A stretch of DNA of 64,000 nt from Leucoraja ocellata (lineage: Eukaryota): positions 2,170,001 through 2,234,000 of the forward strand of contig JAWMAR010000248.1 of NCBI GenBank assembly GCA_036785375.1, read 5' to 3'. The translations under genes were made by a program, and so were the position numbers. Each line of letters starts with the position of its first letter. Positions within the stretch are counted from its first letter, which is position 1. Of the stretch, positions 32,474 through 61,560 are shown in pieces. The notes below the pieces were generated by a model. The model made no database searches. It was not told where the DNA came from and saw only the letters and a list, made by a program, of their open reading frames with translations.

Positions 32474-32598
32474 ATAAAAGGACGGGACACTTATGAAATG
32501 TTGCTGAAAATTAAGGAGTCACTGGAACTGATGCAGCAGTTGCCACAGCACACCATCGAGAGCTACCGGCAGCAGCAGCAACTTTTGCTGCAGAAACA
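32474..32598 (+). CDS. TP63: TP63 exon 10, oligomerisation domain ([41 protein letters not shown])
   Basis: ttacAG / GTaagt; 125 nt; phase 0 to 2. Confidence 0.97.
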
Positions 32599-32899
32599 GT
32601 AAGTTATTAGAGCATCACAGCCTCAAGGCTTTATACAGACTAACAGCTGACAGCAGGCTGCTGCTGGTCATCATAGCAGGCATGGGTATATCCATCGTTG
32701 GCTCATAACTCAGTGCCTTAAAACCTCTGAGAGTTTCTTGCTGAGGCAAATTCACTGAGGCAATCCATTTCCTACATTCACTGTGGGGATCGGGGACCTC
32801 CAGCGTGCAATAGGCCCCACATAAAATGTGGAGTAACAAGCAAACTCAAAGACTAGGCAATGGCGAGAGGCAAGACCAGAAGAACTGAGAAGCAGAATA

Positions 32900-33140
32900 T
32901 CAAGTCAAGAGTGTTTTATTGTCATATGTTCCAGACATAATAATGAAACTCAATGCTCCCCAAGTCTATGTAGTTCAGATCTTATTTGTAGTGTTTACTA
33001 TTCTATTAGTTGTAGGGAGGAAGCTGTTCCTGAACCTGAATGTTACAGTTTTCAGATTCCTGTACGTTCTTCCGGATGGCAGGAGTGAAATGAGACCTGG
33101 GTGGTGTGGGTCTCTGATGCTACTGGCTGCTTTCCTGTAG
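32900..33140 (-). mobile_element. Rex1/Babar-type LINE 3' fragment
   Basis: The minus-strand ORF reads AASIIRDPHHPG-like ...SLLPSGRTYR...RFRNSFLP. Confidence 0.8.
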
Positions 33141-33149
33141 AGGCGAAAC

Positions 33150-33320
33150 AACATGTTAGAAGAACTCAGCAGGTCAGGCAGCATTGTGGAGGGAATGGAC
33201 AGGCGACATTTCAGGTCTGGTCTGAAGAAGCTCCCAACTCAACGTTGCTTGACCCGCTGAGTTCCTCCAGCACTTTGTGATTTGTTTGAGATTCCAGCAT
33301 CTGCAGTTTCTTGTGTCTAC
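33150..33320. repeat. Penelope-terminus-derived foldback repeat
   Basis: gaactcagcaggtcaggca ... gtctgaagaag ... tgcttgacccgctgagttc. Confidence 0.75.
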
Positions 33321-33556
33321 ATACAGATGCATCTCTTGTCTTGGAAAGGTGGTGGGAATATTTTGTTTCAATATTCAGAAATTCCTGAACGGTTTGAGTA
33401 GCCAACCTCCACGGCAGCAGCTATGTAACTGTGTGAGACGAATGTTTAAAAAGTATAGGGCATGCCACAATTACAGTTCCTTATCTCAGCACATAATTAA
33501 TCCACAGGCACTGGGCCATTACGTTTGGTTATGGGAAATCTGGGCCTACTTGTTTC

Positions 33557-33870
33557 ACTTTAGATTTTAGAGGTATAGCGTGGAAAATGGCCCGTCGGTG
33601 CACTGAGACGTGCCAACTAGCAATCACCCTGTACATTAGCACTATCCTACACACTAGGGACAATTTACAGAAGCCAATTCATCTACAAACCTGTATATCT
33701 TGTGGGAGTAAACCTACATGGTCACAGGAAGAATGTACAAAATCTGTACAGACTTGGATTAGATTAGATTAGATTTGTTTATTGTCATATTTCCTGTAGA
33801 CATTACCTTTGGTCAGGATCAAACTCATCTCCAGAGTTGTAAGGCAGCAACTCTACCGCTGTGCCGCCCT
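33557..33870 (-). mobile_element. tRNA-derived SINE (HE1-like)
   Basis: Same family as 10760-11047; interrupted by (TTAGA)n near 33757-33777. Confidence 0.8.
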
Positions 33871-36628
33871 ATGTGCAGGAAAGGCCAGAAGGAAGAATAA
33901 TCTTGATTCACAAAAGGAGTTAAGAGTGTATTTGATCATTAGTGTTGAGAGCATCATCACTTTAAACTCCTACGGGATTAAAACAAAGTGTTTGGAGAAA
34001 GGTCGGCATTCCATGAATTGTTAGTGCCTGAAACCATTAATACTGGCTACCAATTCAGAATTAGATAATTGTCCAGCTCTCTGTGGAACTGTAACTTTAT
34101 TAAGATGCTGCCCATCATCAAGCAGAACTCAATCTAATCTTCATGCAACAAAATCTTGTGGGATGTGGGTTGGTTAGGGGGTGAGAACTAGCCTTGTCCT
34201 TAGTGCGTGGTCATCAAAGCTTCCCCTCCTCTCATTGCCTTTTCCCTAATGGCTCCTGCAATGCAAGTACAACCGCATTCACTCGAGCTTTTGAGCAGTT
34301 GGCGTTCCTGTGGTTAAAGGAGGCAATTTAAATCGATGAGATTTATCTTTAGAATCATACAAGTGTGTCTGTCAAATCTTCACTTGTAAAGATGACAAAA
34401 TGCTGCAGTGTGCTGCTGCGAGTGCCTTATCTCCACCATCAAGTGTCTGATTTCCTTTTGTTTACTGGTTTAAGTAGCTGGTTGCTGCTCAGGCTGTTTC
34501 TTCTGTATTGTCACTTTTTCTTTGATCTCTCCTCCATGATCATGACGAGTTGCTGTGTGTGAGAGACTGTTGTCTGCTACTGTTGAAACGCTGCCACACT
34601 GTTTTCTGCAGTGGGTTTGCTGGGGTCTAGAGAGGCTAGTCAGCCACAAGATGCTAACTGACCATCAGCAGGGCTCGTATCCTGGGGCTGTACTTGAAAC
34701 CACAAGTACGCAATCAGAGCACAGGTACAGAAAAATTATGCAAGGCAGTGCACAGCAGTGTGTCAGTTAGTGTGCAAGGCAGTGTGCAAGTGCAGCAGAT
34801 CAAGATCAGTCAACTGCCGCACCCCAACTTCATCTTGTCCCTCTCACTCACCAATCTCCACGGTTAATTATGCTGCTGGTTTCATTCTCAATAAACATCA
34901 TGGCCCCTATGCCTACAGGAGAGATGTGCACGGAGGGAACGGGCATTGAATAGTGCTGCCGGTGTACTTGACGAAAGCCGTGTCTTTCACCACAAGGTGC
35001 CTGAGGGGGGGAATCGACTTCACTGAGCTGTTTGGTGGAATTTGAGTTGATCTCCTTTGCGTGGCAGTGTTAGGTGAACCAACAGCTACTGCTGAGGCCC
35101 GGCAATTGATCCATGCTGAATCCTGGCCATGTTGTGCCAGCCTCCATCACACGTTCCTCTGAGTTCAGTAAGTGGGGCTCAGCCACACCTGGAGTCACAG
35201 AACTACACAGAACCGAAACAGGCCCAACCCGGCGCAGGGGAAAGCTATTTCTTCATATACATGGAACAAGCTACCAGAGGATGCTGTAGACGTGGGCACA
35301 ACAGTGACGTATAACAGACAGTTGAACAGTGCAAGGTTAGGAAATGATTAGAAGGATATGGACTAAATGCAGGTAAATGTGACTAGCTCGGTTATAAAAC
35401 CTGGTCAGAGGGACAAGTAGGACTGAAGAGCCTGTCACCATGTTCTATGTCTCAACCATGCCAAAGAAATTGCCTAACTGAGCTAGTCGCATTTGCCTGT
35501 GCCTTGGCCCTAGCCCCCTAAACCTTTCTTATCCATATGCCTGTCCATGTCGTTTAAATGCCACAACCCTCTGTATGGGAATGTTGCCCCTCACTCTATA
35601 AACCCTCAAGTTACAGACTGCACTGTCCTGGGGGGGGGAGATGGCAATACTCTATCAATCAAATGGAAGGGGCAAAGATTTACAAGGCTGCTGGCAGGGC
35701 TGAGAAATTGCAGTAAGAAGAGGGAATGTCTGGGTGAGCGATAGTTTCCTTGGAGCAAAGGGACAGTGCGATTTAGTGAATGATATACAATTATGAGGTG
35801 CTCAGACAGGTCTTTCGTCCCAATTCGTCCATGTCAAACAAGATGCCCCATCTAAGCTAGTCCCATTTGCCTGCATTTGGCCCACCTTTCCTATCCGTGT
35901 ACCTGCACAATGTGTCTTAAATGCTATTAAAGTACCTGTCTCAACTACCTCCTCTGACAATTTATTCCATATACCCACTGCCCTCTGAGTGAAAAGGTTG
36001 CCCCTCAGGTTTTTATTAGTTCTTGGTTGGCAAAGGTTAATTGGTCCAAAGGGCCTGTATCTATCCTGTTACTTGTTTGACTAATATTTATTGCCCTATC
36101 CTCATCAATCAATTGTGCATCATAAGCCAGATTCTTCAGCAAGGCCAAGACAGTTCACTGCCCTGGTTTGTTCTGAAGGGCTCAGACATTGTATTTCCTT
36201 TTCTCATCTACTTGTGACATTTGCAGGTCCAGGCATACATGATGGTCCAACATGCGGCTAACCTCATCCAAACATATACTCCTCTCAGGGCCCAGCAATG
36301 TGATCACCCTGTCGCTCCTGATTGATATTGGGTGAAACCAGGGAGTTTGCAGAGAGTGGATGAAGTGAGGATTCTACAACTTAAACCCCTAACTTCGTGC
36401 TGTCCTGTGCTGTTATCTGGTAGTTTCACTGCACTCGGAGTTTCTTGAGACTTGAATCCCTCATTCAAAACTGTGCAAGTAAATCAGCTGGAACTGATAC
36501 CCTGTTCCCAAAGATATCGTCATGGTCATGGATGTGGGCAGGTCTAGGGCTCAGAGGTTCCACTCTGTCGATCCTTATCTATGTTTTCTTTTGTCTCTCT
36601 CTTTCTCTCTCCGGTTCCCTCTCTCCAG

Positions 36629-36797
36629 TCTGTTCAAGGCCTGCTTTCAAAATGAACACATGGAGCCAAACACTGGCAAAAGGCTGTTGGTGATGGAGAA
36701 CACGCCCGCTTGCATACAGACAGAGAACAGCTTACACAACCTCGACAAAGGGGGGTGGAACGAAGCAGCTCTAGCTCAAACATTCCACTACATGTAG
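36629..36797 (+). CDS. TP63: TP63 alternative gamma terminal exon (HLFKACFQNEHMEP...QTFHYM*)
   Basis: Long pyrimidine tract about 36582-36626, then AG ending at 36628; phase 2 join to exon 10 makes CAT (His). The start resembles mammalian p63-gamma HLLSACFRNELVEP; TAG at 36795-36797. Confidence 0.85.
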
Positions 36798-39700
36798 AAA
36801 GACCATTGTCGGAGAACTGAGCTGGAGTGTTTGGAAGAGACACATTCCACAGCGAGTAACCCAGCTCAACTTCACTGATGGGTGATATGTCTGCCTTCCC
36901 AGTCTCTACCCAGTTGCTACTGTCCATCCATCAGCGCTTGTTACCAGTTTCAATGTTCAACATCTGCGGCTATTTCTGTAGCCCCCTCAACTGGTGTGGA
37001 ATTGACTTCCGGTCCAGTGAGTGCGCGCCACTTAGTGATTGCTTCTGTAACAAAATGCCAGGTGGTTATGGTTCTGGATTAGCAGGGCAGAGGCCACAAA
37101 TTCATATCCGTGCAGTTAAACACTACAAGTTGGATACGTCACAGCCTGGCTTTCCTCACTGGTCAGGGAAGCAGTGTTCTGGAGCAAACTCCCAAATGCC
37201 ACAGCAAAGGCCACCTGCCACCCAAACTCTTAAAGTCTTCAGCATAAACCTGGGCATTAGGCAGCAAAAGTTACCTTGCCAGTTTTGTTCACACACTAAA
37301 GAAAGCCAGTACTTTTAACTAAAGGGTGTGTACTGTTTGTAAGGTTATGGAATTGGGCGAGTCTTGTGAAAATATCTCTGGCTGTTCCTTCTGAAGCTAC
37401 CTGAAATGTATCATCCCAACTTGGTGACTTTGCTCACGTGTTTCAGTTGAGGTGGGTTGGAAAGGGAACACCTGCTGAGTGTAATTTTCAGCAATGTCCG
37501 AGAGACATGTACAATTATGACAACATTGGTGAAGTTGTGGAGTTGCTACATGCTGTGTCTATAAAATCACACAGTTCACAAATGGATCCTTTGGTCCACC
37601 ATCTCTATGCTGACCACCTGGTCATCTACACTAATCCCATGTACCCACATTAAGATCATATCTTTCTTCACCTCACCTTAAGTGCCTGACCATTTCCTCT
37701 GGTGCACATTGCAGGTATCAACCACTCTTAGAGTAAAAGACAGATTATCCCTCGGGTTGTATTTAGCCTCCTTTCGCAGTGACTATATTTCCCACTGTGT
37801 TTGAACTCTGGCTCTCTGCCTCACTAGTGGAGTACCGTAACCTTTCACACATACTTGTACATTGGCACTCAGTTGTAAACAACCTAGTTGTAAATGACAT
37901 CCCTGAAACTGCCTTCTCTGCAGAGCCACCCAGGCTTCTCCCTTTGACTTCAGAGTTAATTAGCCTCTCTCAGCAAGATCTGCAAAGGAATCTTTTGTCC
38001 AGGTTACCACATGATTTGTTCCCGAATAAAGGCCACATTACACAAGACGACACAAGACAAAGATCACCCACTGATCCCCAATAAAATTGTGCCTCAGATT
38101 TCTCCAGGAATCTTTCCTTTTCCTTGCAAGTTGCTGATAAAAAGTGGAGAAAACTCTCCGGGAATGGATTCAGCAAACAAACAAAATGTGAACCAGTGCT
38201 TTAATATTTGTTGCAGGGTGGTAAACATCTTCACCTGGAACTTTGGCCACTCTACTGTGACTGTCTGTGACTGCCTCTGGAATTTTAACAATATCCCTGA
38301 CTGTCTCTTATGTAACAAATATGTGAACTGTCCAATTCGGTTCCGATGTACAAACATTTTAAATCCTTTGTGCTGATTGTATTTTATCTTCAAATTGGCC
38401 ATGAAAGCCATTCAGATGCATTGCTGCGCTTTGTGTTGCTATTTCAATGTAATTAATAACTTGGTCAGAACTTCAGTTCTTGAGATCATTGAGCAAATTG
38501 TGTATTGCAGCTGAAGGGCCTGTTTCCCTGCTCCGTTTCTGATTCTAGCTGTCGCACCCTGTTGTTAGGCTGGACCAGTTACCTTCTCTTCATCATGTTT
38601 TGGCCCAAGTGGCAAGAGCTCGCCTTATGGCAGAAATTCCAGTTTTATTGGAGAAGTTTTTTGATTTTATTGCACATTCTTTTTGTAATATTTTGCTTTT
38701 GACAGTGTTTCAGTTCATGCCTAATATCCAGCAATGAGATCAAGCACTTGGCTGCTCACTTAACGTCATTCAGCCTTAATGGTATTCTGTCCATCCACAT
38801 CAAAGTGTAAATGTGCCTGCTGTAAATATAAATTAGGTGGTCTGGACATGATGTTGGCAGCCTTCATTCTGGAACTGGCTGCACACAAAGCTGCAGCAAA
38901 GATTGTAGTGGTGACTCCAGCAAACTGGTTCCTGCAAATCCATGTTCTTGGCATTGACTTCTCTGTGTTAATTTATTTTTAAGTTTATCCTGTTGTATAT
39001 TTTTTTCCAGTTACTTTTGTCCCTTAGATAGCTAATGCATTTTTCTGAAGTTAGTCCTTGGGCATTATTCAATGTGATACAAGGTGGTCCCTCACTCCAT
39101 ATGGTGTGACTAGCACGGGAATGTTACACAGTGTTGACTTGTTTTACACCAAATCCAGAGCCCATTGGATGAAAATGTGTCCCTTTTGATAACTGGCCCA
39201 TGAATATCTGCTGCCTGTGCCCTGGGCTCCCTCTTGTGGGGCACAGGCAAACAGCAACTTGTGTCCTTGTCCTGGGCTAGAACACTTATCCGCTACCTGT
39301 GGATGCCTGAACCAGTGGAATAAAACAGAGTTCACCTGTAAAGTAAATGAGCAAAAGCAAAGCATAGCTTGCAGCCACGTGTCATTTTCTTATTTAATAA
39401 AATATTTTGTCACGCAAGAGGTGCTGTTAGTATTTGGTGTGTGGGAGTAAAATACTGCAGATGCTGGAAATCTGAAATAAAAATAGAGAATGCTGGAAAC
39501 ACTCAGCAGGTCAGGCAGCATCCGTGGAAAGAGGAAAAATAAGATTAATGATTCAGTTCTGACAAGTCATCAAGCTGAAACAATAACTCTCTCTGTCCAG
39601 ATTGTCCCCGAGCTGCTGGTTGTAGTGTTCTGTGTTTTATAGTAGGGATCCTTTCACCACCAGAGACTGTTTAACCAATCATTTTACTTCAGCTGGCTGG

Positions 39701-40044
39701 CCCAAGTGTGGAACTATAATGTCAGCCAAATATGTTCCTGAGTGAAGGAGTGTTTGCAGTTTGATTGTCGGCACTCTTGTGTGTTGCTAGAATGATGCTG
39801 AAACCTTTGCTAGATACTTTAAATAAATGGGGTAAAGAGGCTCTGTGTGGAGTGTTTCTTGGTCCTCCTGCTGTGAGGAAGCATCTGGCATTGCTGGGGA
39901 GGCAGCAGAGGCAGAGAGCAGGTCCATACCCTGGAGCCAGGGGCCTTGTGGAGGATGTAGCTGCAGTCCTCATGGGGTAGACCAGCAACGTTCCTTCGTG
40001 TTAACTTTACTAAAACATAACATGGAGGAAGATTATCATTGCAT

Positions 40045-40455
40045 TGAGAGAAACAGCATGGAAACAGGCCTTCAGCCCCACTCGTCCATGCTGACCAAGA
40101 TGCACCATCTAATCTAGTCACATCTGCTCGTGTTTGGCCCATATCCCTCCAAATTTGTCCTTTCCATGTACCCATCTAAATGTCTTTCAGATGTTGTTCT
40201 AGTATCTATCTCAGTTAGCAGCTCATTCATTTTATCCACCACCCTTTGAGTGAAAAGTTGTCTCTCAATTTTGTATTAAATCTTTCCTTTCTTACCTGAA
40301 ACCTATGCCTTCTGGTTTTTGATTCCACTGCCCTGGATAAAAGACTGTGCATTCACCTTATCTATCCCCCTCATGATTTTATACGGCCTCCTGCACTCTA
40401 AGGAATAAAGTCCTAACCTGCCTAACCTTTCCATATAGCTCAGGCCCTCAAGTCA
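40045..40455 (-). mobile_element. CR1 3' fragment
   Basis: acagcatggaaacaggcccttcagccc tail plus the RT C-terminus on minus. Confidence 0.82.
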
Positions 40456-41575
40456 TACCCGGCATCCTTCTCTCCTGGGTTTTTCTCCTTAAATCTAGAA
40501 ACTACTGTCTCGTTCCTATTACGCTCCGTGCACTGTGCACACACACTATGCCCTTGTGTGGTTAATTGTATGTATTGCTTGCCTTTTGGTTAAATTGGAA
40601 GGAATTCCAACAATGCTCTCCTCTTGCCTACTTTTGACCCATCTCTGAGAACCTCTGACTATCCCCAGGGAGTGTGAAGCACTCCACCTTCCCAAATCAT
40701 CGCGGATGCATGTGTCAGCAATGTCAGAAGCGACGCCTTCCAAATGCGACAGCGAGCCAAGTTATCTTGGCAGGCAGAGGTTAAACATGTTATTGAAGAA
40801 CAGGGGCATTCTCCCAGTGTCGTGGTCTGCTACTCATCCTGGGTCAACCCCAGAAACAGGCGATGGGCCATTCCTCCTGCTGCTTGAGTTTACAAACTAG
40901 TGCCACACTGGCAGCGGAGGTGTATATAAATATTTCTGAGGTACAGTACACATTGCAAGTGTTTCTTTAAACGTGAGCTGAACCATTGAAGTAATTAGTG
41001 TAGGAGGTACATTCCAACATCCCTCTCTGGTCACCTGGAACCTTGTCATTCCCAGAGGCATGCTGCTGGTGTCCAGGATGACCATGGGGAGGGAGGTGAA
41101 TAAAAGGAGTCTAATTCAAGTGGAGATTATTGTATGCGCAAGTACAGTGAGGTAAAGGTGCAATAGAAACCTTGCTCGCCAGATTGCTCACAACACACTG
41201 GTCAATTAGATGTTTGAGACACCAGAGATTGCAGATGCTGAAATAAGAAGCATAAACACAAACAGCTAGAGGAACTCGGAGGGCAGGCGGCATCTGTAAG
41301 GCCGTGTGTGGGATGGTTGACATTTTGGGTCTGGACCCTGCACCGTGCACTGTGCACACACATGATCTTTGGGAGGACCTGCGTATGTGGATGCAAGGTG
41401 CACCTTGATGCACTCTGTGGAGAGTTGGGAAGAAATATTGGTGGGGCGGGTGGTGCCTCATGCTGGCCCTGGGTTCAGTGTTGTGAGTGAACATGTTCAC
41501 TTTGTCCTCTGGGTAAAGAGATGTTGAAATGGGGATTGTGTTGCAGTGATTTATTATTCCCCTCTTCACCTTCAG

Positions 41576-41724
41576 GCCATCGATGCAGTCACAGCAATCC
41601 TTCGGGCCTTCACCCCCGCCGATGAACAAGATGCACAGCATGGGGAACAAGCTGCCTTCGGTCAGCCAGCTCATCAGCCCCCAACGCAACACACTCTCAC
41701 AGGCCGCCATGCCGGGCAACATGG
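41576..41724 (+). CDS. TP63: TP63 exon 11 ([39 protein letters not shown]...)
   Basis: cttcAG / GTaagt; 149 nt; [10 protein letters not shown] motif. Confidence 0.96.
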
Positions 41725-42026
41725 GTAAGTGCCATCTTCACATTCCTTCCCGTGCTCACCTGCCTCACCCTCCCTGGCCAAAGGGCATCCCTCTTCTCCA
41801 TCTCCTCCCATCTCCAGCACCAACTCCACCCTAATCTCTCAGGACCACACTGCCCTCTAGCTCGTCTGTCCATTTCTGAATTGCCAAACTTTGTTGTTGG
41901 CCTGGCTAGGAGCTGTTTCCAATTGGTCCCCCTCTGCGCCAGAACATATTCACATTGTCAATGGGTATATCCTGGTGTCGGCTCCATCCAATTTTCACTC
42001 TGTGCATTCCTTCTCCCTCCTCTGTG

Positions 42027-42306
42027 GGAGGCACAATGGCGCAGCAGTAGCGCTTCTGCCTCAACGACCTTGGTTCGATCCTGGCTCTGGGTGCTGTCTG
42101 TATGAAGTTTATCCATTCCCCCTGTGACCTCATGGGTTTGTTCCAGGTGCTCTTGTTTTCTCCCACAGTCCAAAGAAGTGCATATTTTGGGTTAATTGCC
42201 TTCTGTAAATTGTCACCAGTATGTAGGAATAACAAGTGTGATCACTGGTCGGCGCGGACTCGATGGGCCAAAGGGCCTGTTTCCGTGCTGTATCTCTAAA
42301 CTAAAC
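42027..42306 (+). mobile_element. tRNA-derived SINE (HE1-like), near full length
   Basis: A box TGGCGCAGCAG, B box GGTTCGATCC, tail gggcctgtttccgtgctgtatctctaaactaaac. Confidence 0.88.
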
Positions 42307-42829
42307 AAAGGATAGGGGACCTTGCACTAGGATAGGGATAGTGGGGCGGACAGGTGCCGCTCTTTTACCAGGCTAAGCGTTGAACTGCCTAGTATTTGCG
42401 ATTAGTCAGTGAGCCAGTGTTCAGGGCCTTAAGTGAAGGTTCCATTTTCAGATATCGAGTCACGTTGGGACAGTTGAAGGTGATACCTTGAGTGGCGGAA
42501 TGGTCGTTGACACTTTCCCTCCGACTCTGACACAGTGATGGCTGCTGATCAGGGCTACACCTCGACCAGAACTCATCTCCAGCACCGCGGCAGGGAAGGG
42601 GGTGGGACGAGGAATGAGGCGGGGCTTTGTGGGAATATCTCCTGTGGCCGTGATAGCTCAACCCAGTACCCCCGGCACCGTGGGCAGTGGAAGAGTTCAA
42701 GGAATCCAGGTCTGTCCTCTGGAGCCACGCCACAGGCTCTAGCAGCTGGTGTGTTAGGCAGGAGAGGAGAGCGGCGGCAAAGGATCCGTTTCCTCCCTCC
42801 CCCTTCTCCGTCCGCGACCTTGTTCCCTT

Positions 42830-43115
42830 CCTACAGGGAGGAGTCTAAGACTAGAAGCCATAGCCCCAAAATAAAAGGACAAATCTTTAGGAAGGAGATG
42901 AGGAGGAATTTAATTAGCCTATCTGTGAATTCATTGCCACAGATGGTTGTGGAGGCCAAGTCATTGGGTATTTTAAGACAGATACTTGATTGGTAAGGGT
43001 GTCAGAAGTTACGGGGAGAAGGCAGGAGAATGGGGTTGAGAGGGAAAAATAGATCAGCCGTGATTGAATGGCAGAGTAGACTTGATGGGCCAAATGGCCT
43101 ACTTCTGCTCCTATG
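42830..43115 (+). mobile_element. CR1 3' fragment
   Basis: ESKTRSHS..IKG..FRKEMRRN...NSLPQ plus 3' UTR. Confidence 0.85.
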
Positions 43116-43354
43116 ACATGATCTTACATCCATCCCAGTGTCCCTCCTTGTGTACCCCTCCTCCTTCCTTCCTTCCTTCCCTCTTGCCCTCTCCGCTATG
43201 TTGCTGCCCTGCCAACTGGTGTTTGTTCCCTCATTCACTCACTCACTTTGTGAGGTGGAGGCTGGCGGGGTGAGCCAGTGCCGCGATTGGGTGGGTGTGC
43301 GTGCGAGTGTGTGAGTCTGCACATGCGTTCTGACCAGATGTTGTGTGTCCTCAG

Positions 43355-43496
43355 TGCCTCAGATGATGAGCATCCCGATGCAGATGAACGGAGAGATGAA
43401 CGGCCTGAGCCCCACGCAAGGCTTGACCTCGCCGATGGCCTCCACGTCCCACTGCACGCCCCCCCCGCCGTACCCATCGGACAACAGCATCTCCAG
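43355..43496 (+). CDS. TP63: TP63 exon 12 (VPQMMS...MNGLSPTQ...[16 protein letters not shown]; PY motif)
   Basis: cctcAG / GTcaga; 142 nt; PPPPY WW-domain ligand. Confidence 0.95.
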
Positions 43497-43629
43497 GTCA
43501 GAGGTGGTGACTCGATTCATGACTTCCTCTTTATGCTGCGTTGGTGGTGGGGTGCCTCTCGCTCTGTGTGTACCATCCCTGCAAACGGCTTCCCAAACCC
43601 TCACGCCAGCTCCCAGTCGCCTCACCTTG

Positions 43630-44105
43630 CATACAGCTTGGAAACAGGCCCGTTGGCCCAACTTGCCCATGCTGACCAACATGCCTCATCTACACCGAGT
43701 TCACCCACCTGCATTTGGCCCATATCCTTCTAAACCTTTCCTATCCATGTACTGTACCTGTCCAAATGATTTTTAAATGTCATGATAGTATCTGTCTCAA
43801 CTACCACCTCTGGCCGCTCGTTCCATACAGCCTCCAAGTTTTGTGTGAAAAAGTTGCCTCTTGGGTTCCTATTAAATCCTTTCCTCTCACACCTTTAGTC
43901 TATGTCCTCGTTCTCAATTCCCCTACTCGGAGTAAAAGACTGTGCCAGTTCTCCTCCACCCTATCTATTCCCCTCATGATCTTATACACCTCTATAAGGT
44001 CACCCTGCAGCCTCCTGCGCTGAAAGGAATGAAGCCATAGTATCGAGCCCAAGCTCTCCAATCTTGGCAACATCCTCGTAAATCTTCTCGGCACTCTTTC
44101 CAGCT
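43630..44105 (-). mobile_element. CR1 3' fragment
   Basis: The minus-strand ORF reads RRFTRMLP...RRRLQGDLIEVYKIMRGIDRV. Confidence 0.87.
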
Positions 44106-45317
44106 AAACAGCATCTGAGAACCTCTCCTGGATTACAAGCAATTAAAAGAGCTCTCTCTGCTTCTCCTGGCCTTGACAGCAGCCTGTTCCCAAGGTCCCA
44201 CCATACCCACAATGCAGCCATAGCCCTCTCAGGTCTTCCTTCGCCCGCACTCCTCACCATCCTGGTTGGAGCAGCTGGAATCTTAAGGGTCAACTCAACC
44301 TGAAGTTGGTAGTTCTGTGGATCACAGTGTGGATATGGAGAACCATGTGATCTGTTGAAGTTGTTGCACTGTGACCTAGAGCCAGCATTTAGATTGTGTG
44401 AAGCCTCTTCCCATCCCAGCGCTCTGTGAGTGTGATCCATTGAAGCCACCTCCACCCTTCCCCACCTCTCCACACCAGCCTCCGCCGCCAGAACCCTGCC
44501 CTCTTCAAACTCGGCTTTGTTGATCCTCCAGCTGTGGGTGCTGCTCACAGCTTGCCGCCCATGGTGAGCGAGGGTGGAGGAAAGCTCAGTGCAGAGTGAG
44601 AGGCTGCCAGAGCCCTGGGTTGCAGGGGGACTACTGTAACGCTGGGACACTGTAGGACTGACCAGTGGAGGAGAGCTGGCCAACTCCTGGCTGCGGGAGG
44701 GGCTGCAGCAACACCGTTGCCTATGGTCTCCAGTCTGATGCCGTTGCCCTGTGAATCACAGGTCTAGGGTTGGAGTCAAATTTGGACATTGAGAGGTAAT
44801 TCCCCAGTGAGGGTGTCTGTAATTAATTCAGAGTGGTACAGCACATAAACACCCATATCCTGTGGCTCCGTGCAAAGATTGTTCTTTAAGGGACCCCATT
44901 CTCTTCATAGTTACTCTTTCAGCCTTACTGCACTTATAGAATCTCTCAGGATTGCTTGTTCACGTATCTGCCCAAGCTCCCCACGTTCGCTCACCGACCC
45001 CGTGCGATACTGAGGGAGCACTGCAGTGTAACAGGAGCTCTCTCTGCCCACCCCCCCCCCCCCCCCCCCTGGGTTCACCCCATCATCATAGGTGCCCGCA
45101 CTGTTCCCTGGGTGTGACATTGTTCCAGTGTTTCCTACAGTGCCGCCTCCTTGGCCGAGAAGCCCCCCCTCCCCGTGGCTCTAAGCTCACACACTGCAGA
45201 CGCGCCTCTGCTTTGTGTTTCTGTCTGGCTTGCTGCCTGGTTCTGGGACGGTTTGGTGAGTTGTGAAGGAGCCTGAGAACACGCAGTGCTAATCAATCTT
45301 ATCCTCTCTGCCGACAG

Positions 45318-45411
45318 TTTCCTGGCCAGAGCCGGATGTGCATCATGTTTGGAGTATTTCACCACCCAGGGGCTGATGAATATTTACCAGATCGAGCATT
45401 TTACCATGGAT
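45318..45411 (+). CDS. TP63: TP63 exon 13, SAM domain ([32 protein letters not shown])
   Basis: cgacAG / GTgagt; 94 nt; read directly from DNA. Confidence 0.97.
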
Positions 45412-45784
45412 GTGAGTATCTGACTCTCATCTCTCTGGGTTTCATCAAGCTGCTGCCTTTATAACCTTGGTATCAACTAAAAGGTGGTGCGAGTGTGGGT
45501 CAGATCAAGCTCCTCAATATCTTGACTGTGGCTGGGAAAGCAATGTAATTGTTTACTGTCATTTGGGAGCCCCTGTGGGCCTTGGATCTCGGACAAGGTG
45601 CGTGCAGAGACGAGTGTAGGAAGTCCCCCATGCCGATGGGAGACTCCTTCCCATCTTTACTCTGTCTGACTAGGGAGCAGGCCCCGGCTCTCCTTACAGG
45701 TGATCTAACTGTCTCCCTCTGCCAGCTCCACCAAGGACCAGCCAAAGTTCAGAGTGTGAAGTCGGTGTTTGTTTGGGGAAACTA

Positions 45785-46160
45785 ACTGGAGTTTGAAAGG
45801 ATGAGGATGGACCTCATTGAAGCATCCCCAAATAGTGAAAGGCCTGGATAGAGGAGATGTGGAGAGGAAGTTTCCACTACTGGGAGGGTCTAGGACCAGA
45901 GGCCACAGCCACAGAATAAAGTGACGTACCTTTAGAATGGAGAATTAGTCAGATGATGGTAAATCTGTGCAATTCATTGCCACAGATGGCTGTGGAGGCC
46001 AAGTCATGGGTATTTTTAAGGCAGAGATTGACAAACTCTAGATTAATAAGGGTGTCAGGGCTTATGGGGAGAAGGCAAAGAATGGGGTTGAGAGAGGATA
46101 GATCACCTGTGATTGATTGGTGGAGTAGACTCGAATGGACTAGTTCTGCTCCTACTGTAT
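45785..46160 (+). mobile_element. CR1 3' fragment
   Basis: VNLCNSLPQ..VEA motif and CR1 3' UTR. Confidence 0.85.
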
Positions 46161-46801
46161 ATCATGAACATGAAATGGATACAATGCTGAGATTAAAAAA
46201 ATAAAAAATAAACTTTATTCATGATAAAATAGACCTACAGAAGAAGAACTGTGCAAAATTCCTCCACATTCTCTACGACTAATGCATTCATTAGCGTTAT
46301 ATTTGGTAGTGTTCCCAAAAATCATAATTTTACCCGGCACCCTTGCCACTCATGTGGCCCCTTGGGGTGATATCCCTTCCCTTGCCAATGCTGAGACATG
46401 GAGGGATTTGGTGCACAGTCCATTAGTTAATCCATGCAGGCAGGTGTATCCTTGTCACTTGAGTCACCTCGAGTCTTGGTAAAGGATAAGGCAGGATTCT
46501 GTGTAAATGGGAAAGGTGTATTTAAAGGGAAATGTTGGATTATCATTCAGTGAACTGTGCGGTCCCTGCCGAGCCCAGGGTCTGGACTTCATTCATCGTT
46601 TAAGGTGTTGGAGCAGAGATCTCGAGTTTGAATTCGGTACGGTTTGGACAGAGTCTGCCAACGCTGACCAAGTCTCCGGCTCGGCCTGTCCAAGTTATCG
46701 GCCTGAACGCGGCATGGGCAACATTCCACGTCAGAGCCTCTCTCTGTTTGAGTTGCTGCCTGTCAATAACTAATGCTGTCCTTTCCTCAACCCCGATTCA
46801 G

Positions 46802-47098
46802 GATCTGATCAGCCTCAAGATCCCAGATCAGTACCGCCACGCCATCTGGAAAGGAATACTTGACCACAGACAGTCTCTGGACTTCACCAACGCCCCCCAA
46901 CTCCTGAGAAACAGCAGCAGTGCTTCTACCGCCAGCCTGGGCTCCCAGAACGAGACGCGCGGTGAGCGAGTCATTGACGCTGTCCGCTTCACCCTGCGCC
47001 AGACCATCTCTTTCCCTCCCCGCGACGACTGGAATGACTTTGGGTTTGATGTGGACGGGCGCCGCAGTAAACAGCGGATCAAGGAAGAGGGAGAGTGA
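46802..47098 (+). CDS. TP63: TP63 exon 14 coding part: SAM end, TID ([10 protein letters not shown]), SUMO motif IKEE, stop
   Basis: attcAG acceptor ends at 46801; the exon ends RIKEEGE* (p63-alpha terminus); TGA at 47096-47098. Confidence 0.98.
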
Positions 47099-54240: not shown

Positions 54241-54361
54241 CTGTAGTCACGGTGGGTGTAAAGCAGCGGCTCCTTCCAGCACACCTTGAGGCCTGCAGGG
54301 TCCAGTAGGCAGTTGTCGGCATGGATCGGGTGGCTCAGATCATTACGATTATCCTGCTGAC
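54241..54361 (-). CDS. P3H2: P3H2 exon 12 (GQQDNRNDLSHPIHADNCLLDP...CWKEP..YTHRDYS)
   Basis: tagcAG / GTacca; 121 nt; HxD Fe-binding motif (HAD). Confidence 0.95.
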
Positions 54362-54404
54362 CTGCTAGTCACGAAGGGGCTGTGAGGGTGGAGAGTAACG
54401 CCAC

Positions 54405-54900
54405 CGGCTGTGACCCCCTCCCCACAGCCCCCTCCCCGCCACAGACCCCTCCCCCACAGCCCCCTCCCCCACAGCCCCCTCCCCCACAGCCCCCTCCCCA
54501 CCACAGACCCCTCCCCCACAGCCCCCTCCCCCACAGCTCCCTCCCCACCACAGACCCCTCCCCCACAGCCCCCTCCCCCACAGCCCCCTCCCCACCACAG
54601 CCCCCTCCCCCACAGCCCCCTCCCCCACAGCCCCCTCCCCGCCACAGCCCCCTCCATCCACAGCCCCCTCCCCACCACAGCCCGCTCCCCCCCACAGCCC
54701 CCTCCCCCCCACAGCCCCCTCCCCCACAGCCCCCTCCCCCCCACAGCCCCCTCCCCCCCCACAGCCCCCTCCCCCCACAGCCCCCTCCCCCACAGCCCCC
54801 TCCCCCCACAGCCCCCTCCCCCCACAGCCCCCTCCCCCCACAGCCCCCTCCCCCCCACAGCCCCCTCCCCCCACAGCCCCCTCCCCCACAGGCCCCTCCC
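54405..54900. repeat. C-rich minisatellite (CCCCACAGCCCCCT-type, about 15-17 bp unit)
   Basis: About 30 visible tandem copies filling P3H2 intron 11. Confidence 0.97.
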
Positions 54901-54935
54901 TGCCACAACACCCCTCGCTCCCCCCTGCGACTCAC

Positions 54936-55086
54936 CTTCGATGGCAGTGCGACACACCAGGTGTGTGTAAGAGAAGTAGAGGGTGGAGTTGAGCATGAAG
55001 TAGGCCTGGATGATGGCCCGAGCCCTCTCGCTCGCCTCGTAGAACAGCGTCGCCCCCCGCAGCGAGATACGCCCCTCGACCCCGTA
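54936..55086 (-). CDS. P3H2: P3H2 exon 11 (YGVEGRISLRGATLFYEASE...MLNSTLYFSYTHLVCRTAIE)
   Basis: ctccAG / GTgagt; 151 nt. Confidence 0.96.
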
Positions 55087-55433
55087 CTGGAGAGAGACGG
55101 GGGCATTAATGAGGAATGTGGGGTAACCTGCCTCCCTCCATGCCTCCTTTCCATCTGCCCACTTCCCCCCCCCCCAGGGCTATGGGTCTGATTTCTCCCA
55201 CCCCCACACCACTCACCATGAGTACTCTGTAAACGGTGTTGTGGGACCTGCCCCCCTCACCCTCCCTTTGTCCCATTCCCCCTCGCCCTTCCCCAACCCC
55301 CCCGGGCAGTAGTTCTAACTCTCCCACTCTGCTCACCATCAAGGCTCTGCAAACGCTAGTGTGCGACCTGCCCTCTCCCCAGCGGTGGGTCTAACCCTCC
55401 CCCCCCCCCCCCCCCCCCCCCCACACCGCTCAC

Positions 55434-56337: not shown

Positions 56338-56465
56338 GTTGGCCACGAGGAAGAGCTGCTGACACTCGATGGGGGTGATGACGTGGTCCATTAACACCCT
56401 CTGGCTGCCGTTCATCTGCCGCGAGTCGCTCACCACCCTCGCCCCACTGTAGGGCACCGCGCCCC
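56338..56465 (-). CDS. P3H2: P3H2 exon 9 (GGAVPYSGARVVSDSRQMNGSQRVLMDHVITPIECQQLFLVAN)
   Basis: acacAG / GTgagt; 128 nt; NG.QRV..D motif. Confidence 0.95.
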
Positions 56466-56884
56466 CTGTGTGCGGGGGGGAGAGACTGTCAGTGGGTATG
56501 GGAACCCCCCCGCCCTTGCATTCCACCCCTACTACACCAAGCTCCCCCCCACCCCCCCTCTCCTGGGCACCCTGTGAGGTTTCGGGGCAGTGTATCTGCG
56601 CGGATGGGGCACCAGCCCTTACCCCCCCCAACCCCCCCCCCCCCCCCCCCCCCGGACCCCCAGCCATGAGGAGAGATGTTCAGTAGACCCTGTGACCTCC
56701 CGCCCCACCCAGACCACCCCCACCCGCAGACCTGATCAGACCCAGCCATCCCCCGGCCAGAGTGGACACTGCCCCCTGGAGTGGACATCAGACTACCCCC
56801 AAGGGGGCCAGAGAAAACACAGACCCTCCCCCTCCCCCACAGCCAGTGGTCACCCGGACCCCCCGCCAGCCGCCGCTGCCCCAC

Positions 56885-56979
56885 CTTCCCGCTGCTCGGG
56901 CTCGCTCGCTCTCTCCGCCCGTTTCCGCTGCATCACCGGCATCACTGGGGCTCTCAGGGTCTCCGCCCCCGTCGTCCGC
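56885..56979 (-). CDS. P3H2: P3H2 exon 8, divergent linker (RTTGAETLRAPVMPVMQRKRAERASEPEQRE)
   Basis: acccAG / GTgggg; 95 nt, open; phase 2 to 1 bridges exons 7 and 9; weak sequence similarity except the terminal RE-G. Confidence 0.75.
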
Positions 56980-57109
56980 CTGGGTCAGAGGGCAGGGAGC
57001 AGGGATCAGTGGCTGAAACCCCCTCCCCACACAGCGTCACCCCCCACCCCACACTCTCACTCATCCCTCAACCCACTCATCCCCAACAACCTTAATCCCC
57101 CACCCCACC

Positions 57110-57305
57110 GCAGCCCCTCACCCCAGTCTGACCCCTCACCTCAGTCTGACCCCTCACCCCAGTCTGATCCCTGATCGCAGTCTGACCCCTCATCCAGTCT
57201 GACCCCTCACCCCAGTCTGACCCCTCACCTCAGTCTGACCCCTCACCCAACTCTGACCCCTCACCCCACTCTGACCCCTCAGCCCCCACCCGGACCCCTC
57301 ACCCC
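57110..57305. repeat. 18-bp minisatellite (CCCCAGTCTGACCCCTCA)n
   Basis: About 10 tandem copies in P3H2 intron 7. Confidence 0.93.
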
Positions 57306-57498
57306 ACGTCTCAAACCCCCCACAACCCCCCCCCCCCCCCACCACTACTGTCACCCCATTTCACCCCCCGTTTGCCCCCAGATCTGGGAGGGAGTGACAC
57401 GGAGCCCCAGCCTTGGTCGGTGCAACACGGGGTCGGTGCAGCGTGGGGTCGGTGAGGGGTGAATCAATACTGGGGGCGGCGGCGGCTTTCTCTCCCAC

Positions 57499-57551
57499 CT
57501 GCCGGAAATCTCCAGCTCCTCTTCCAGCTCCCCGGACACGGTCCAGCTAAC
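57499..57551 (-). CDS. P3H2: P3H2 exon 7, short linker (VSWTVSGELEEELEISGR)
   Basis: ctgcAG / GTggga; 53 nt; phase 0 to 2; Trp at position 3 as in other family members. Confidence 0.75.
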
Positions 57552-58147
57552 CTGCAGACAAACAAACTCCGTTCAGACCTGTTCACCAGGGACGGTCCTC
57601 ACACTTCCACCACTCAAACACATCACAACATTGTAAGCACACAGCAGCCACAGATCGACACAAAGTGTTGAAGTAACTCAACCGGTCAGGCAGCATCTCT
57701 GGACAACGTGAAAACAGTCGGGCAGGAGCCATCAGGTTCAGGAACAGCCACTTACCTACAACCATCAGGCACTTGAACCTGCTCAACCCTAACCCTTACC
57801 CAAGGAAAAACTACAGACCACCTCTTGCACTACCGGGGACTTGTTTTCTAATTGTGTTTTTGCACTAATGTCTTGATATTGTTGCCATTTTTTTCATTTT
57901 CCCCGCATAGAATATCGCGTGTGGTTTATGTATGATTGGTTTGGTGGTTCCCTGAGTCTCTGCAGCCATAACAGTTTCCCTGCCTTGGTCCCGGAATTCA
58001 CGAGAGATTGTGTTTGGAAGGAACTGTAGATGCTGGTTTATACCGAAGATAGACACAAAATGCTGGAGTAACTCAGCAGGTCAGGCAGCATTTCTGGAGA
58101 AAAGGACCAGGTGACGTTTCGGGTTAGAACTCTTCTTCGGACTCAGG

Positions 58148-58480
58148 CTTGGGTAGAGTGGATGTGGAGAGGATGTTTCCACTAGTGGGAGAGTCTAGGG
58201 GGCATAGCCTCAGAATTAAAGGACGTTCTTTTAGGAAGGAGATAATGAAGAATTTATTTTGTCAGAGGGTGGTGAATCTGTGGAATTCTTTGACCATAAG
58301 GCTGTGGAGGCAAAGTCAGTGGATATTTTTAAGGCAGAGATAGATAGATTCTTGATTAGAACGGGTGTCAGAGGATGTAGGTAGAAGGCGGGCGAATGGG
58401 ATTAGGAGGGAGAGATGGATCAGCCATGATTGAATAGCGGGGTAGACGATGTGTCAGATGGCCTAATTCTGCTCCTATCA
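58148..58480 (+). mobile_element. CR1 3' fragment
   Basis: RVDVERMFPLVGESRGHSLRIKG...QRVVNLWNSL. Confidence 0.88.
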
Positions 58481-58962
58481 CATTCACACCACAGACTGGG
58501 CTGTCTCTGCCCCGCAGTCCCAGGCACGGCCACGGGGTGGCAGCGGTGCCCCCTGCAGTCCTGGGCACAGCCACAGGGTGGCAGCGGAAGCCCACGGCCG
58601 GAGACATAACTCGGGGGCTGCGGGAAGTGCCGTCGGGTCGGGCAGCTTCTGTGTGGAGATGGGTCGGTGATTGGGATCAGCGTCCCCTGTCTGTACCCCG
58701 ACCTGCCCGGTGTTCTGCCGTGTGACACCAGACTGTGGGCAGAGACCCGGGGAGAGGAACCCATTGACCACTCCATGGCCCCCTATCCACCACTAATCCA
58801 ATCCCCCTACCACAGAACCCTCCACTACCATCCCACCCACTGCCCTCCCCCCACTGGCCGTCCACCCCATCCATCGCTGCCCCTCTCTCCCCCAACACCC
58901 ACCCACCCTCCCTCCTCTGCTGTCACCCCCCTCCCCTCCCCCCCGGAGGGGTGCCCACCTAC

Positions 58963-59052
58963 CGGGTCGATGTAGGCAAAGCCTTGTTCGGCGCTGGCTG
59001 CCTGGAGTACCTCCTTCTCCAGCCGGTACCTCTCCATGTAGTCCAGTATATC
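58963..59052 (-). CDS. P3H2: P3H2 exon 6 (DILDYMERYRLEKEVLQAASAEQGFAYIDP)
   Basis: ctccAG / GTaggt; 90 nt. Confidence 0.93.
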
Positions 59053-59366
59053 CTGGAGGGAGAATACACCGTCACTCGGGACTCAGCAGGACCACACAGC
59101 TGTGGGCCACATCTGTCTCCATACATCTGTGGGCCGCGTCTGGACAGCTGGTCCCATACAGCTGTGGGCCACATCTGGGCAGCTGCTCCCCACAGGCAGA
59201 CGTGGCCCACAGCTGGAGAGTGGACTGAAGCTTGAGGGGAGGGGTGGGGGTGAGATTGAGAGGGGGGTGAGCTGGGAAGCATTGGGGGACCTGGAGCCGG
59301 GGAGAGAGGTAGGACAGGGTCACTGGGAGCAGGCAGCTATTTCTGGGTCAGTACATGGCCTGCAGA

Positions 59367-59560
59367 GGGGCAGCACAGTGGTGCATTGGTACAGTTGCTG
59401 CCTTACAGTGCCAGGGACCTAGGTTTGGCCCTGACCACGGCTACTGTTGTATGGAGTTTGTACGTTCATCGTGTGATCGTGTGGGTTTACCCCGGGTGCT
59501 CTGGTTTCCTCCCTCCCTCCAAGGACGTACAGGTTTGTAGGTAATTTGGCTTCAGTTAAT
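59367..59560 (+). mobile_element. tRNA-derived SINE, 5' part
   Basis: gggcagcacagtggtgcattggtacagttgctgcc head and a body shared with 42027-42306. Confidence 0.8.
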
Positions 59561-59696
59561 ATTGGCATTGGGGAGTGTGCTGACCTGCTGGGGTCCTGGG
59601 GGTGAGGTGGGGGTGAGGGGAAACTGTCCTGTCGCCACCTGAGGGCGGGGCGGTGCGGTGGGGTTTGCGTGGGGGAGGGAGGGGAGTGTGACTGAC

Positions 59697-59836
59697 CTGC
59701 CGTGGCCCTGGGGTGGGCTCGCCTCTGGCCCTCAGCTCCAGCCGGTAATACGCGGTGTTGTCCAGCATGTCAGGGTCTCCAGGACGCAGCAGCAGGTAGG
59801 ACGTGCTGGCAGCCAGAGCCCCCCCATAGTCACCCA
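59697..59836 (-). CDS. P3H2: P3H2 exon 5 (VGDYGGALAASTSYLLLRPGDPDMLDNTAYYR...PRQ)
   Basis: ctgcAG / GTcagt; 140 nt; TPR-like segment. Confidence 0.93.
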
Positions 59837-60309
59837 CTGCAGGGAGGGAGAGAGAGGGGGTCAGTGTGTGGCCCCGGGTCCAACCCCCCCCCCCCCCCCA
59901 CCCCGGTCTCCACCTCCCTCACCCCCCACCTAGAGCCCCTATTGTAGTCATCCATGGGGGGGGGGGGGCAAGAGAGAGCGAGAGAGGGGACAGTATGTGG
60001 CCCTGGACCCCCTATTCCCTCCCCTGGCCCCCTGCTCTCGCAAACCCCCCCCCCCCCCCCCCCAACCTCCAGGGATCGCGCATAGTTGGAGGGGGAGGGG
60101 CATCAGTTTGTGGTCCTGAACTGCCCCACCGGCCCCCAGCCCACTCCCATCACCCTTCCCCTCCCCTCTTTCCCTCCCCGCATCCCCACCATCCCCTCCC
60201 CTCACATTCCCTCGCTCCCCTTCCCTCCTTCCCACCCTCATTCCTTTCCCGTCCCACCCACCCTCGCTCCCCTCCTCTCCCACCCTCGCTCCCCCCCGGG
60301 GACACTCAC

Positions 60310-60441
60310 CCCTGTAGTAGGAGTACTGCAGGAAGTCGTGGTGCAGGGGCAGGTAGTTGTGGATGGGCGAGAGGCGGCCAGCGCGGGTGGACAGCTGCCG
60401 CACACAGTCGTGTTCACACAGCAGCACCTGCAGGTAGTGAC
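60310..60441 (-). CDS. P3H2: P3H2 exon 4 (GHYLQVLLCEHDCVRQLSTRAGRLSPIHNYLPLHHDFLQYSYYR)
   Basis: cctcAG / GTgagt; 132 nt; CxxxC motif and the P3H2-type GRLSPI. Confidence 0.96.
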
Positions 60442-60834
60442 CTGAGGGCACACATCGTCACACACAGTCCTGTCACAGAGTCTATTATACAGACCCACCA
60501 ACCCTCCACTCACCCTCCCACACACAGTCTTGTTCACACAGCTGCACCTGGACATAGTGGGCAGGGGGTTTCAGGGCAGGACACACACACGCACGCACAC
60601 GCACACGCACTGACCTTCCAGCTCCCATCCATACTAACCACACTCCTGCGTCACCAACAACTCCCTCACGAACACCCCCACCCCTCTTCCCACTCCTCCA
60701 CCCAATGCTCCCCATCCATCACCATCTATAAACTCATGCCCACCTCACCCTTCCCTTACACCCACCCCCCCACCCCCCGGCCTCATTCACCCTCTCCCAT
60801 CCTCACCACTATCCAGCTTTGGTCAGCCTGATGG

Positions 60835-61560
60835 GACAGAGCTATACATCTGGAAACAGGCCCTTCAGCCTACCTTGTCGATGCTGACCAAGTTGACATA
60901 TTGGTCCCTTTGTTTGCATTTGGCCCACATTCCCCTAAACACTTACTGTGAATACATCTGTCCAAAGATATTTTAAAAGTTGTACTTGCATCCATTTCTA
61001 CAGCTTTCTCTGGCAGCTTATTCCAAATATGGACCACCCTCTGAGTGAAAAAGTTGCCCCTGAGGTCTCTTTTATATCTCTCCCCTCTCATCTTAAGCCT
61101 GTGCCCTCTAGTTTTAGAATCCTCTACCCTGGGAGAAAAAGACTGTGAGCATTCACTACATCCATGCCACTCATGATCGTGTATACCTCAATAAGGCCAC
61201 CCCTCATCCTCCTACTCTCTAAAGACAAATCTGCCTGTCCAAACTCTCCCTTTAACTCAAGCCCCCAAGCCCAGGTAATTTCCTGGTGAATCTTTTGTGC
61301 ACCATTTCCAATTCAATGATATCCTTCCTGTAGCTGGGCGGCAGAACCGCACACAATGTGGTCTCACCAACGACATGTACAGCTGCAACATGACAAATAA
61401 ATTGAATCTTGAATCTTGAATCTTGAATCTTGATGTCCCACCTTTTCTATCAATACCCTTCCCAATGAAGGCCAGAGTGCCAAACGCCTTCTTCACTACC
61501 TTGTCCACCTGACTCGCCACTTCCATACAACTGTTCACTCTGTTCACCAACACTCTCCAG
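60835..61560 (-). mobile_element. CR1 3' fragment
   Basis: QVDKVVKKAFGTLAFI and RGNFFTQRVVHIWNKLPE on minus; contains (TTGAATC)n at about 61401-61433. Confidence 0.87.

Follow-up and report, generated by a model that had tools for sequence, protein, structure and literature searches.

Introduction

The gamma forms of p63 end in a short peptide encoded by exon 10' of TP63, which in human and mouse (NP_001108451.1, NP_001120733.1) is a terminal exon inside intron 10, joined in phase 2 behind a pyrimidine-rich acceptor and removing SAM and TID from the product. TAp63gamma, lacking SAM and TID, is described as constitutively tetrameric and active in cell culture (PMC9091270), and gamma is reported to be the dominant p63 mRNA form in skeletal muscle (PMC9091270, PMC11551734), with TAp63gamma counted as supported at the mRNA level only (PMC11551734). 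Mice without exon 10' are reported to be short-lived and to develop more tumours (PMC11802870). According to PMC10035508, PTBP1 binds UCU/UCUU sites both at the gamma acceptor and in the poly(A) region, acting as a repressor of the exon in human cells and in Xenopus, and over-expressed zebrafish TAp63gamma has been described as pro-apoptotic (PMC3886889). The role of the 38 gamma residues is called unknown in reviews (PMC9091270, PMC11802870), and the Discussion of PMC10035508 argues that the gamma peptide has no conserved function.

p63gamma is already known in mammals, Xenopus and zebrafish, and the exon considered here, located in a 64,000-nucleotide stretch of DNA from the skate Leucoraja ocellata that was analysed as a whole (the window), is an ordinary one. 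It shares with human and mouse exon 10' its place inside intron 10, the phase 2 join, the removal of SAM and TID and a pyrimidine-rich acceptor, and its position and homologous first 14 residues are shared with the p63gamma of Xenopus and zebrafish. It differs from the human exon in its tail of 56 rather than 38 aa, in which residues 15-38 match at 1 of 24 positions, and from human and mouse exon 10' in a 3' UTR that apparently extends over about 2.5 kb or more. A protein of the thorny skate Amblyraja radiata, XP_032887583.1, has the identical 56-aa tail and join in a predicted model (tumor protein 63 isoform X5) that carries no gamma label.

Identity and exon layout of the skate gene

The gene is TP63, rather than TP73 or TP53. 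The best matches of its product among solved structures (PDB) are to p63, the p73 paralog lies on a different contig, and the RefSeq name of the matching thorny skate protein, tumor protein 63, supports the same identity, as does the presence of exons 11-14 with SAM and TID. All features described below lie on the + strand of the window. Exon 10, encoding the second half of the oligomerization domain, spans 32474..32598 and ends two bases into a codon (phase 2), with the GT donor following at 32599-32600. The gamma exon, which has a single match in the whole genome, is preceded by a polypyrimidine tract and AG acceptor at 36575..36628, the AG itself occupying 36627-36628. Joining 32598 to 36629 yields His and 55 further residues, a 56-aa tail closed by TAG at 36795-36797, so the phase 2 join, the coordinates and the length given in the original prediction were correct. 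The first 14 codons (36629..36668) are recognisable in skate, teleosts and tetrapods, and the first 8 residues are predicted to be helical; the remaining 42 residues and the stop (36669..36797) form a skate-specific distal tail that is predicted to be disordered.

Exon 11 (41576..41724), whose acceptor competes with that of the gamma exon, opens the route to the alpha/beta C-termini. It is followed by exons 12-14, which encode SAM and TID, are skipped in the gamma form and occupy 43363..47095 within approximate limits set by tblastn; exons 11-14, SAM and TID included, thus lie downstream of the gamma exon at 41576-47095. Use of the gamma acceptor ends the reading frame ahead of exons 11-14 and gives a product without SAM and TID.

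Further observations were made elsewhere in the window. A 45-nt in-frame exon (15 aa) flanked by AG and GT lies at 1280-1324 (+), between p63 exon 3/3' and exon 4. The start of exon 4 could be placed in 184 proteins; two of them, the Logan DeltaN-gamma product P0001 and RefSeq X5, contain this small exon and the other 182 lack it, so that it is possibly specific to skates or cartilaginous fishes. Downstream of p63, the stretches at 54361-55188 and 56400-60900 consist of G+C-rich, low-complexity tandem sequence with long proline-rich frames.

Spliced products carrying the gamma exon

A search with the tail found one protein among 5 candidates, P0001, a 429-aa DeltaN form that is translated from a Logan contig of 2213 nt and has the 32598^36629 join exactly. 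Its cluster has three members, the others being an 89-aa protein from a Logan contig of 905 nt and RefSeq XP_032887583.1, and the same 56-aa tail is found in 3/3. The skate gamma form is accordingly already known, as it is present in RefSeq, and the earlier expectation that automated annotation may overlook the exon does not hold, since RefSeq carries it as isoform X5. P0001 combines a DeltaN start with a gamma end. The exon for its N-terminus lies outside the window, on the upstream side, and encodes an in-frame Met located 8 residues before the usual DeltaN start. For the human DeltaN-gamma form, PMC11551734 states that robust evidence is lacking.

Contigs or reads from 4 of the 24 listed runs were aligned to 32500-41660. 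Runs X1 and X2 derive from two other organisms, with about 96-97% identity over the region; both are RNA by guess only, and X2 is marked 'probably DNA'. Each contains one contig whose alignment starts exactly at 36629, preceded by 30 letters known only to lie off the upstream intron. The intron bins at 34030-35253 have a depth of 0 in X1 and X2 versus 37-61 in X10, which covers the intron. From the Logan contigs, the RefSeq model and the X1/X2 contig starts, the gamma exon is spliced in skate. The junction proposed in the original prediction was recovered in assembled form, in the 2213- and 905-nt contigs. No raw junction reads were seen: the joint 32598^36629 is absent among the 15 joints listed for the aligned runs (1777 more are unlisted), and the raw RNA run X11, of which about 6 parts in 100 were read, has no p63 coverage on exon 10 or the unique gamma part and is uninformative. 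Contig depth on the gamma exon is 16 in X1 and 5 in X2, well below the bins of exons 10 and 11, which suggests a minor isoform, contig depth being a poor measure. None of the runs listed for 36629-37400 is labelled as RNA, a point given no weight as evidence.

The acceptor and predicted regulation of the gamma exon

The original prediction of a strong polypyrimidine tract followed by AG was well founded. The tract has a pyrimidine fraction of 0.90, the highest of the nine acceptors compared (4/9 positions, those of exons 8-11, were one base off, which leaves the ranking unaffected). UCUU/CUCU-type words, predicted to be PTBP1-type sites, number 17 per 60 nt at the gamma acceptor. The 8 others compared have 0-10, and no listed intron-10 window outside this site has more than 7, making the gamma acceptor the densest site in intron 10. 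Since 17 such words are concentrated at this site, PTBP1-type control of the skate gamma exon is likely, as a prediction from acceptor word content. An Rfam scan of intron 10 gave no match at the gathering score.

Taken together, we hold with considerable confidence that the exon is orthologous to the gamma terminal exon of p63, that its product lacks SAM and TID and is likely a constitutively active tetramer, and that use of the exon is likely repressed by PTBP1-type binding. The analysis shows the join of exon 10 to 36629, an open frame that stops after 56 residues, the homology and the loss of exons 11-14 from the product. By analogy with mammals and Xenopus, the truncated skate p63 would likely form a constitutively active tetramer, and exon use would likely be held down by PTBP1-type binding at the pyrimidine-rich acceptor. 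The main effect of the gamma exon is likely the loss of SAM and TID.

The 3' UTR and intron 10

Downstream of the gamma stop, AATAAA signals occur at 38025, 38080, 39319, 39396 and 39476. One X1 contig stops at 39330, just past the signal at 39319, contigs being unable to show RNA ends; X1 coverage beyond 39330 continues at about half depth to approximately 41441. The gamma 3' UTR is probably long, and was provisionally placed at 36798..39340 from X1/X2 contig coverage, with an uncertain end. Low-depth X1/X2 contigs extend over most of the 3' half of intron 10 (36798-41441), and the 5' half is empty. This low-depth coverage suggests a gamma 3' UTR of at least 2.5 kb, with read-through nearly to exon 11. 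Intron 10 also contains high-copy SINE/LINE-like repeats at 32900-33870, 35500-35950 and 39480-40450, which are very deep in all four runs.

Orthology with exon 10' and age of the exon

The tail of human TAp63gamma (P0131, NP_001108451.1) has 38 aa, and 9/14 of its first residues are identical in skate, matching the original prediction on both points. The fair count is 8/13 (positions 2-14), because exon 10 supplies two bases of the His codon; the residues in common are L2, A5, C6, F7, N9, E10, E13 and P14. Identity over positions 2-14 (62%) is lower than that of the gene body (288/328). We compared this likeness with that at all stop-free AG sites on both strands of the window, 4985 in total, keeping the reading phase constant: the true site gave 8/13 and the other 4984 at most 4/13. 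A profile built from 11 non-skate tails scored 31.2 at the gamma site and 12.4 at the next best site. On both grounds, the skate exon is orthologous to human p63 exon 10', and its identification as a p63-gamma exon is borne out by homology, the phase 2 join and spliced products.

In-register homologues comprise 55 distinct tetrapod tails and 8 distinct teleost tails. The presence of the exon in skate, teleosts and tetrapods indicates, with good support, that cartilaginous and bony fishes inherited it from their last common ancestor, upholding the earlier proposal that it predates the chondrichthyan/osteichthyan split. No shark or chimaera gamma tail was found among the 120 of 454 matches listed, and a search with cluster representatives (46 matches) gave no new gamma tail among the 11 inspected. 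Lane et al. (2011) are said to have treated the p53 family of the elephant shark. The p63 isoforms obtained from lamprey by 5' RACE include no gamma-like form (PMC4743058); 5' RACE would miss one. In the skate p73 gene, 697 AG sites in 20 kb scored at best 7.8 against the p63 gamma profile, revealing no gamma-like exon; intron 10 of this gene (L007, G000:C597:773800-783799) is just about 1.6 kb long. Among the papers listed by searches of the open literature, none describes a gamma exon from a cartilaginous fish; Fig. S6 of PMC10035508 (human-Xenopus) and Fig. S2 of PMC3886889 (shark-to-human alignment) may bear on the point.

Conservation within the gamma tail

We collected 273 proteins, located the end of exon 10 in 256 and found a gamma-like tail in 105, of which 66 were distinct: 55 of 38 aa (tetrapod), 8 of 25-26 aa (teleost), the skate tail and 2 chimeric gene models, the last being excluded before clade counts. 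Tetrapods were assigned by protein names and, for a few unnamed Logan proteins, by sequence. The tail filter used positions 1-7, which inflates apparent conservation there; a neutral filter retained 59 tails and gave the same picture.

The segment was originally described as a conserved motif, HLxxACFxNExxEP, a description that the wider comparison shows to be overstated, since the motif is not invariant: substitutions occur at C, F and N in teleosts, at N, E and P in birds and at H in some frogs. In teleosts, C6 is R and F7 is L in 8/8 tails, and N9 is S or P, never N; bird tails mostly have S9, D13 and S14. Zebrafish gamma matches skate at 5/13 of positions 2-14 and human at 8/13, frog tails match skate at 8-9/13, and the pipefish has 2/13 residues in common with skate or human. 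Leaving aside H1, which is half forced, the alignment of skate and teleost tails has at most one invariant position, 14, which is variable in birds. Four frog tails, P0162, P0164, P0166 and P0168 (Aquarana, Hyperolius, Nanorana, Mantella), have Gln rather than His at position 1, which implies a changed first base of the exon.

Tail length is 25-26 aa in teleosts, 38 in tetrapods and 56 in skate. The skate distal tail shows no significant likeness to those of tetrapods (shuffle p 0.85) or teleosts (p 0.90), and the distal parts of teleost and Xenopus tails are unrelated to it. Two candidates for hidden homology with tetrapod tails were rejected: LKHST in the +1 frame near the stop (rank 28 of ~3170 windows, i-E 16) and HST past the stop (rank 18 of ~3170 windows, i-E 12; not significant). 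Between clades, likeness is limited to the first 14 residues, the rest having apparently been replaced independently. The earlier claim that the motif is the sole constrained segment stands in this between-clade sense and fails within tetrapods, where the length is 38 aa in 55/55 tails and H28 (54/55), S29 (55/55) and P38 (53/55) are kept. Tetrapod tails are also invariant for L2, C6 and L11 (55/55); skate has H at 11.

Over 36629-36961, X1 differs from the skate at 9 positions: the first 14 codons are free of change, the distal tail has 4 differences and the UTR 5. Of the distal-tail changes, 3 are non-synonymous (100 N sites) and 1 is synonymous (26 S sites); the alignment is ungapped and the stop is retained. 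These changes fit neutrality and are too few to be significant. The absence of differences from the first 40 nt is expected by chance (p 0.19).

Possible reasons for the persistence of the first 14 residues

We tentatively favour, at slightly less than an even chance, a structural reason, namely that the segment is kept as an extension of the oligomerization domain. The first ~8 gamma residues would continue the second helix of this domain up to a Glu-Pro stop. Such an extension would account for about 14 residues being moderately kept across jawed vertebrates and the rest being replaced independently. An AlphaFold model of the 89-aa P0003 with 57 sequences has a helix at 17-41 that spans gamma residues 1-8, with a pLDDT of 87 for residues 31-40 and at most 50 beyond; pLDDT tracks alignment depth, AlphaFold readily lengthens lone helices, and the model was folded without an alpha control. 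Proline occurs at positions 2-13 in 1/64 tails and at position 14 in 50/64. Helix propensity over positions 2-13 lies above the mean of 5200 control frames in 12/12 representatives and in the best 5% in only 3, these counts, like those for proline, coming from tails related by descent. The teleost substitutions retain helix-forming residues. The possibility of an amphipathic helix was rejected (shuffle p 0.59-0.94 in 13/13 tails), and since the segment is not amphipathic, its packing on the tetramer is not indicated. No solved structure includes the gamma tail, and an AlphaFold model of the full-length protein was unusable (mean pLDDT 40).

Alternatively, the first 40 nt may be kept as RNA, for exonic splicing elements that they would hold next to a regulated acceptor; the peptide would then be a by-product, and only the truncation would matter. 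We regard this as a serious, somewhat doubtful explanation. The segment adjoins an acceptor regulated by PTBP1 and tolerates chemically radical swaps (C/R, H/L, S/R), and the authors of PMC10035508 hold the peptide to be functionless; however, an RNA fragment wholly within the human gamma exon did not bind PTBP1 according to the same paper. Codons that differ do so by one base in 8/8 cases in zebrafish versus 32/50 in the gene body, and in 4/5 versus 28/40 in human, but this excess rests on few, non-independent sites. X1 has no differences over the first 40 nt, which, as noted, is within chance. Selection at the protein level would fit two features, the scarcity of proline at 2-13 and the constant tail length of 38 aa among tetrapods.

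The first 14 residues could also be a short linear motif for a specific partner, for stability or for localisation, a proposal we consider improbable. The residues invariant throughout the tetrapod tails and the 8 common to skate and human would suit it, and PMC9091270 and PMC11802870 leave open what the gamma C-terminus does. Against it, teleosts swap C6, F7 and N9, skate replaces L11 by H, the one position besides H1 that may be constant between skate and teleosts is variable in birds, and the filter on positions 1-7 inflates the conservation.

A chance intronic frame or an independent exonisation in skate, which would suit the lack of kinship between the distal 42 residues and those of other tails (shuffle p 0.85 and 0.90) and the lack of another cartilaginous-fish tail among the 120 of 454 matches listed, is scarcely credible and is largely refuted by the AG-site controls and the profile, given an 8/13 in-register identity in the same intron and phase that lies far beyond 4984 controls, and spliced gamma products on record.

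Significance

Documented p63gamma has so far reached back to bony vertebrates, as described for Xenopus (PMC10035508) and zebrafish (PMC3886889), and the skate exon would extend its age to the ancestor of jawed vertebrates. The three-clade comparison of skate, teleosts and tetrapods narrows the question of the gamma tail to residues 1-14. A more specific version of the helix extension, in which the first 13 residues prolong the second tetramerization helix in a conserved manner and so tune the p63 tetramer, and in which the exon is an early jawed-vertebrate innovation, is speculative and rather unlikely as a whole. If true, the gamma tail would be an ancient structural element and not the functionless by-product of truncation for which PMC10035508 argues.
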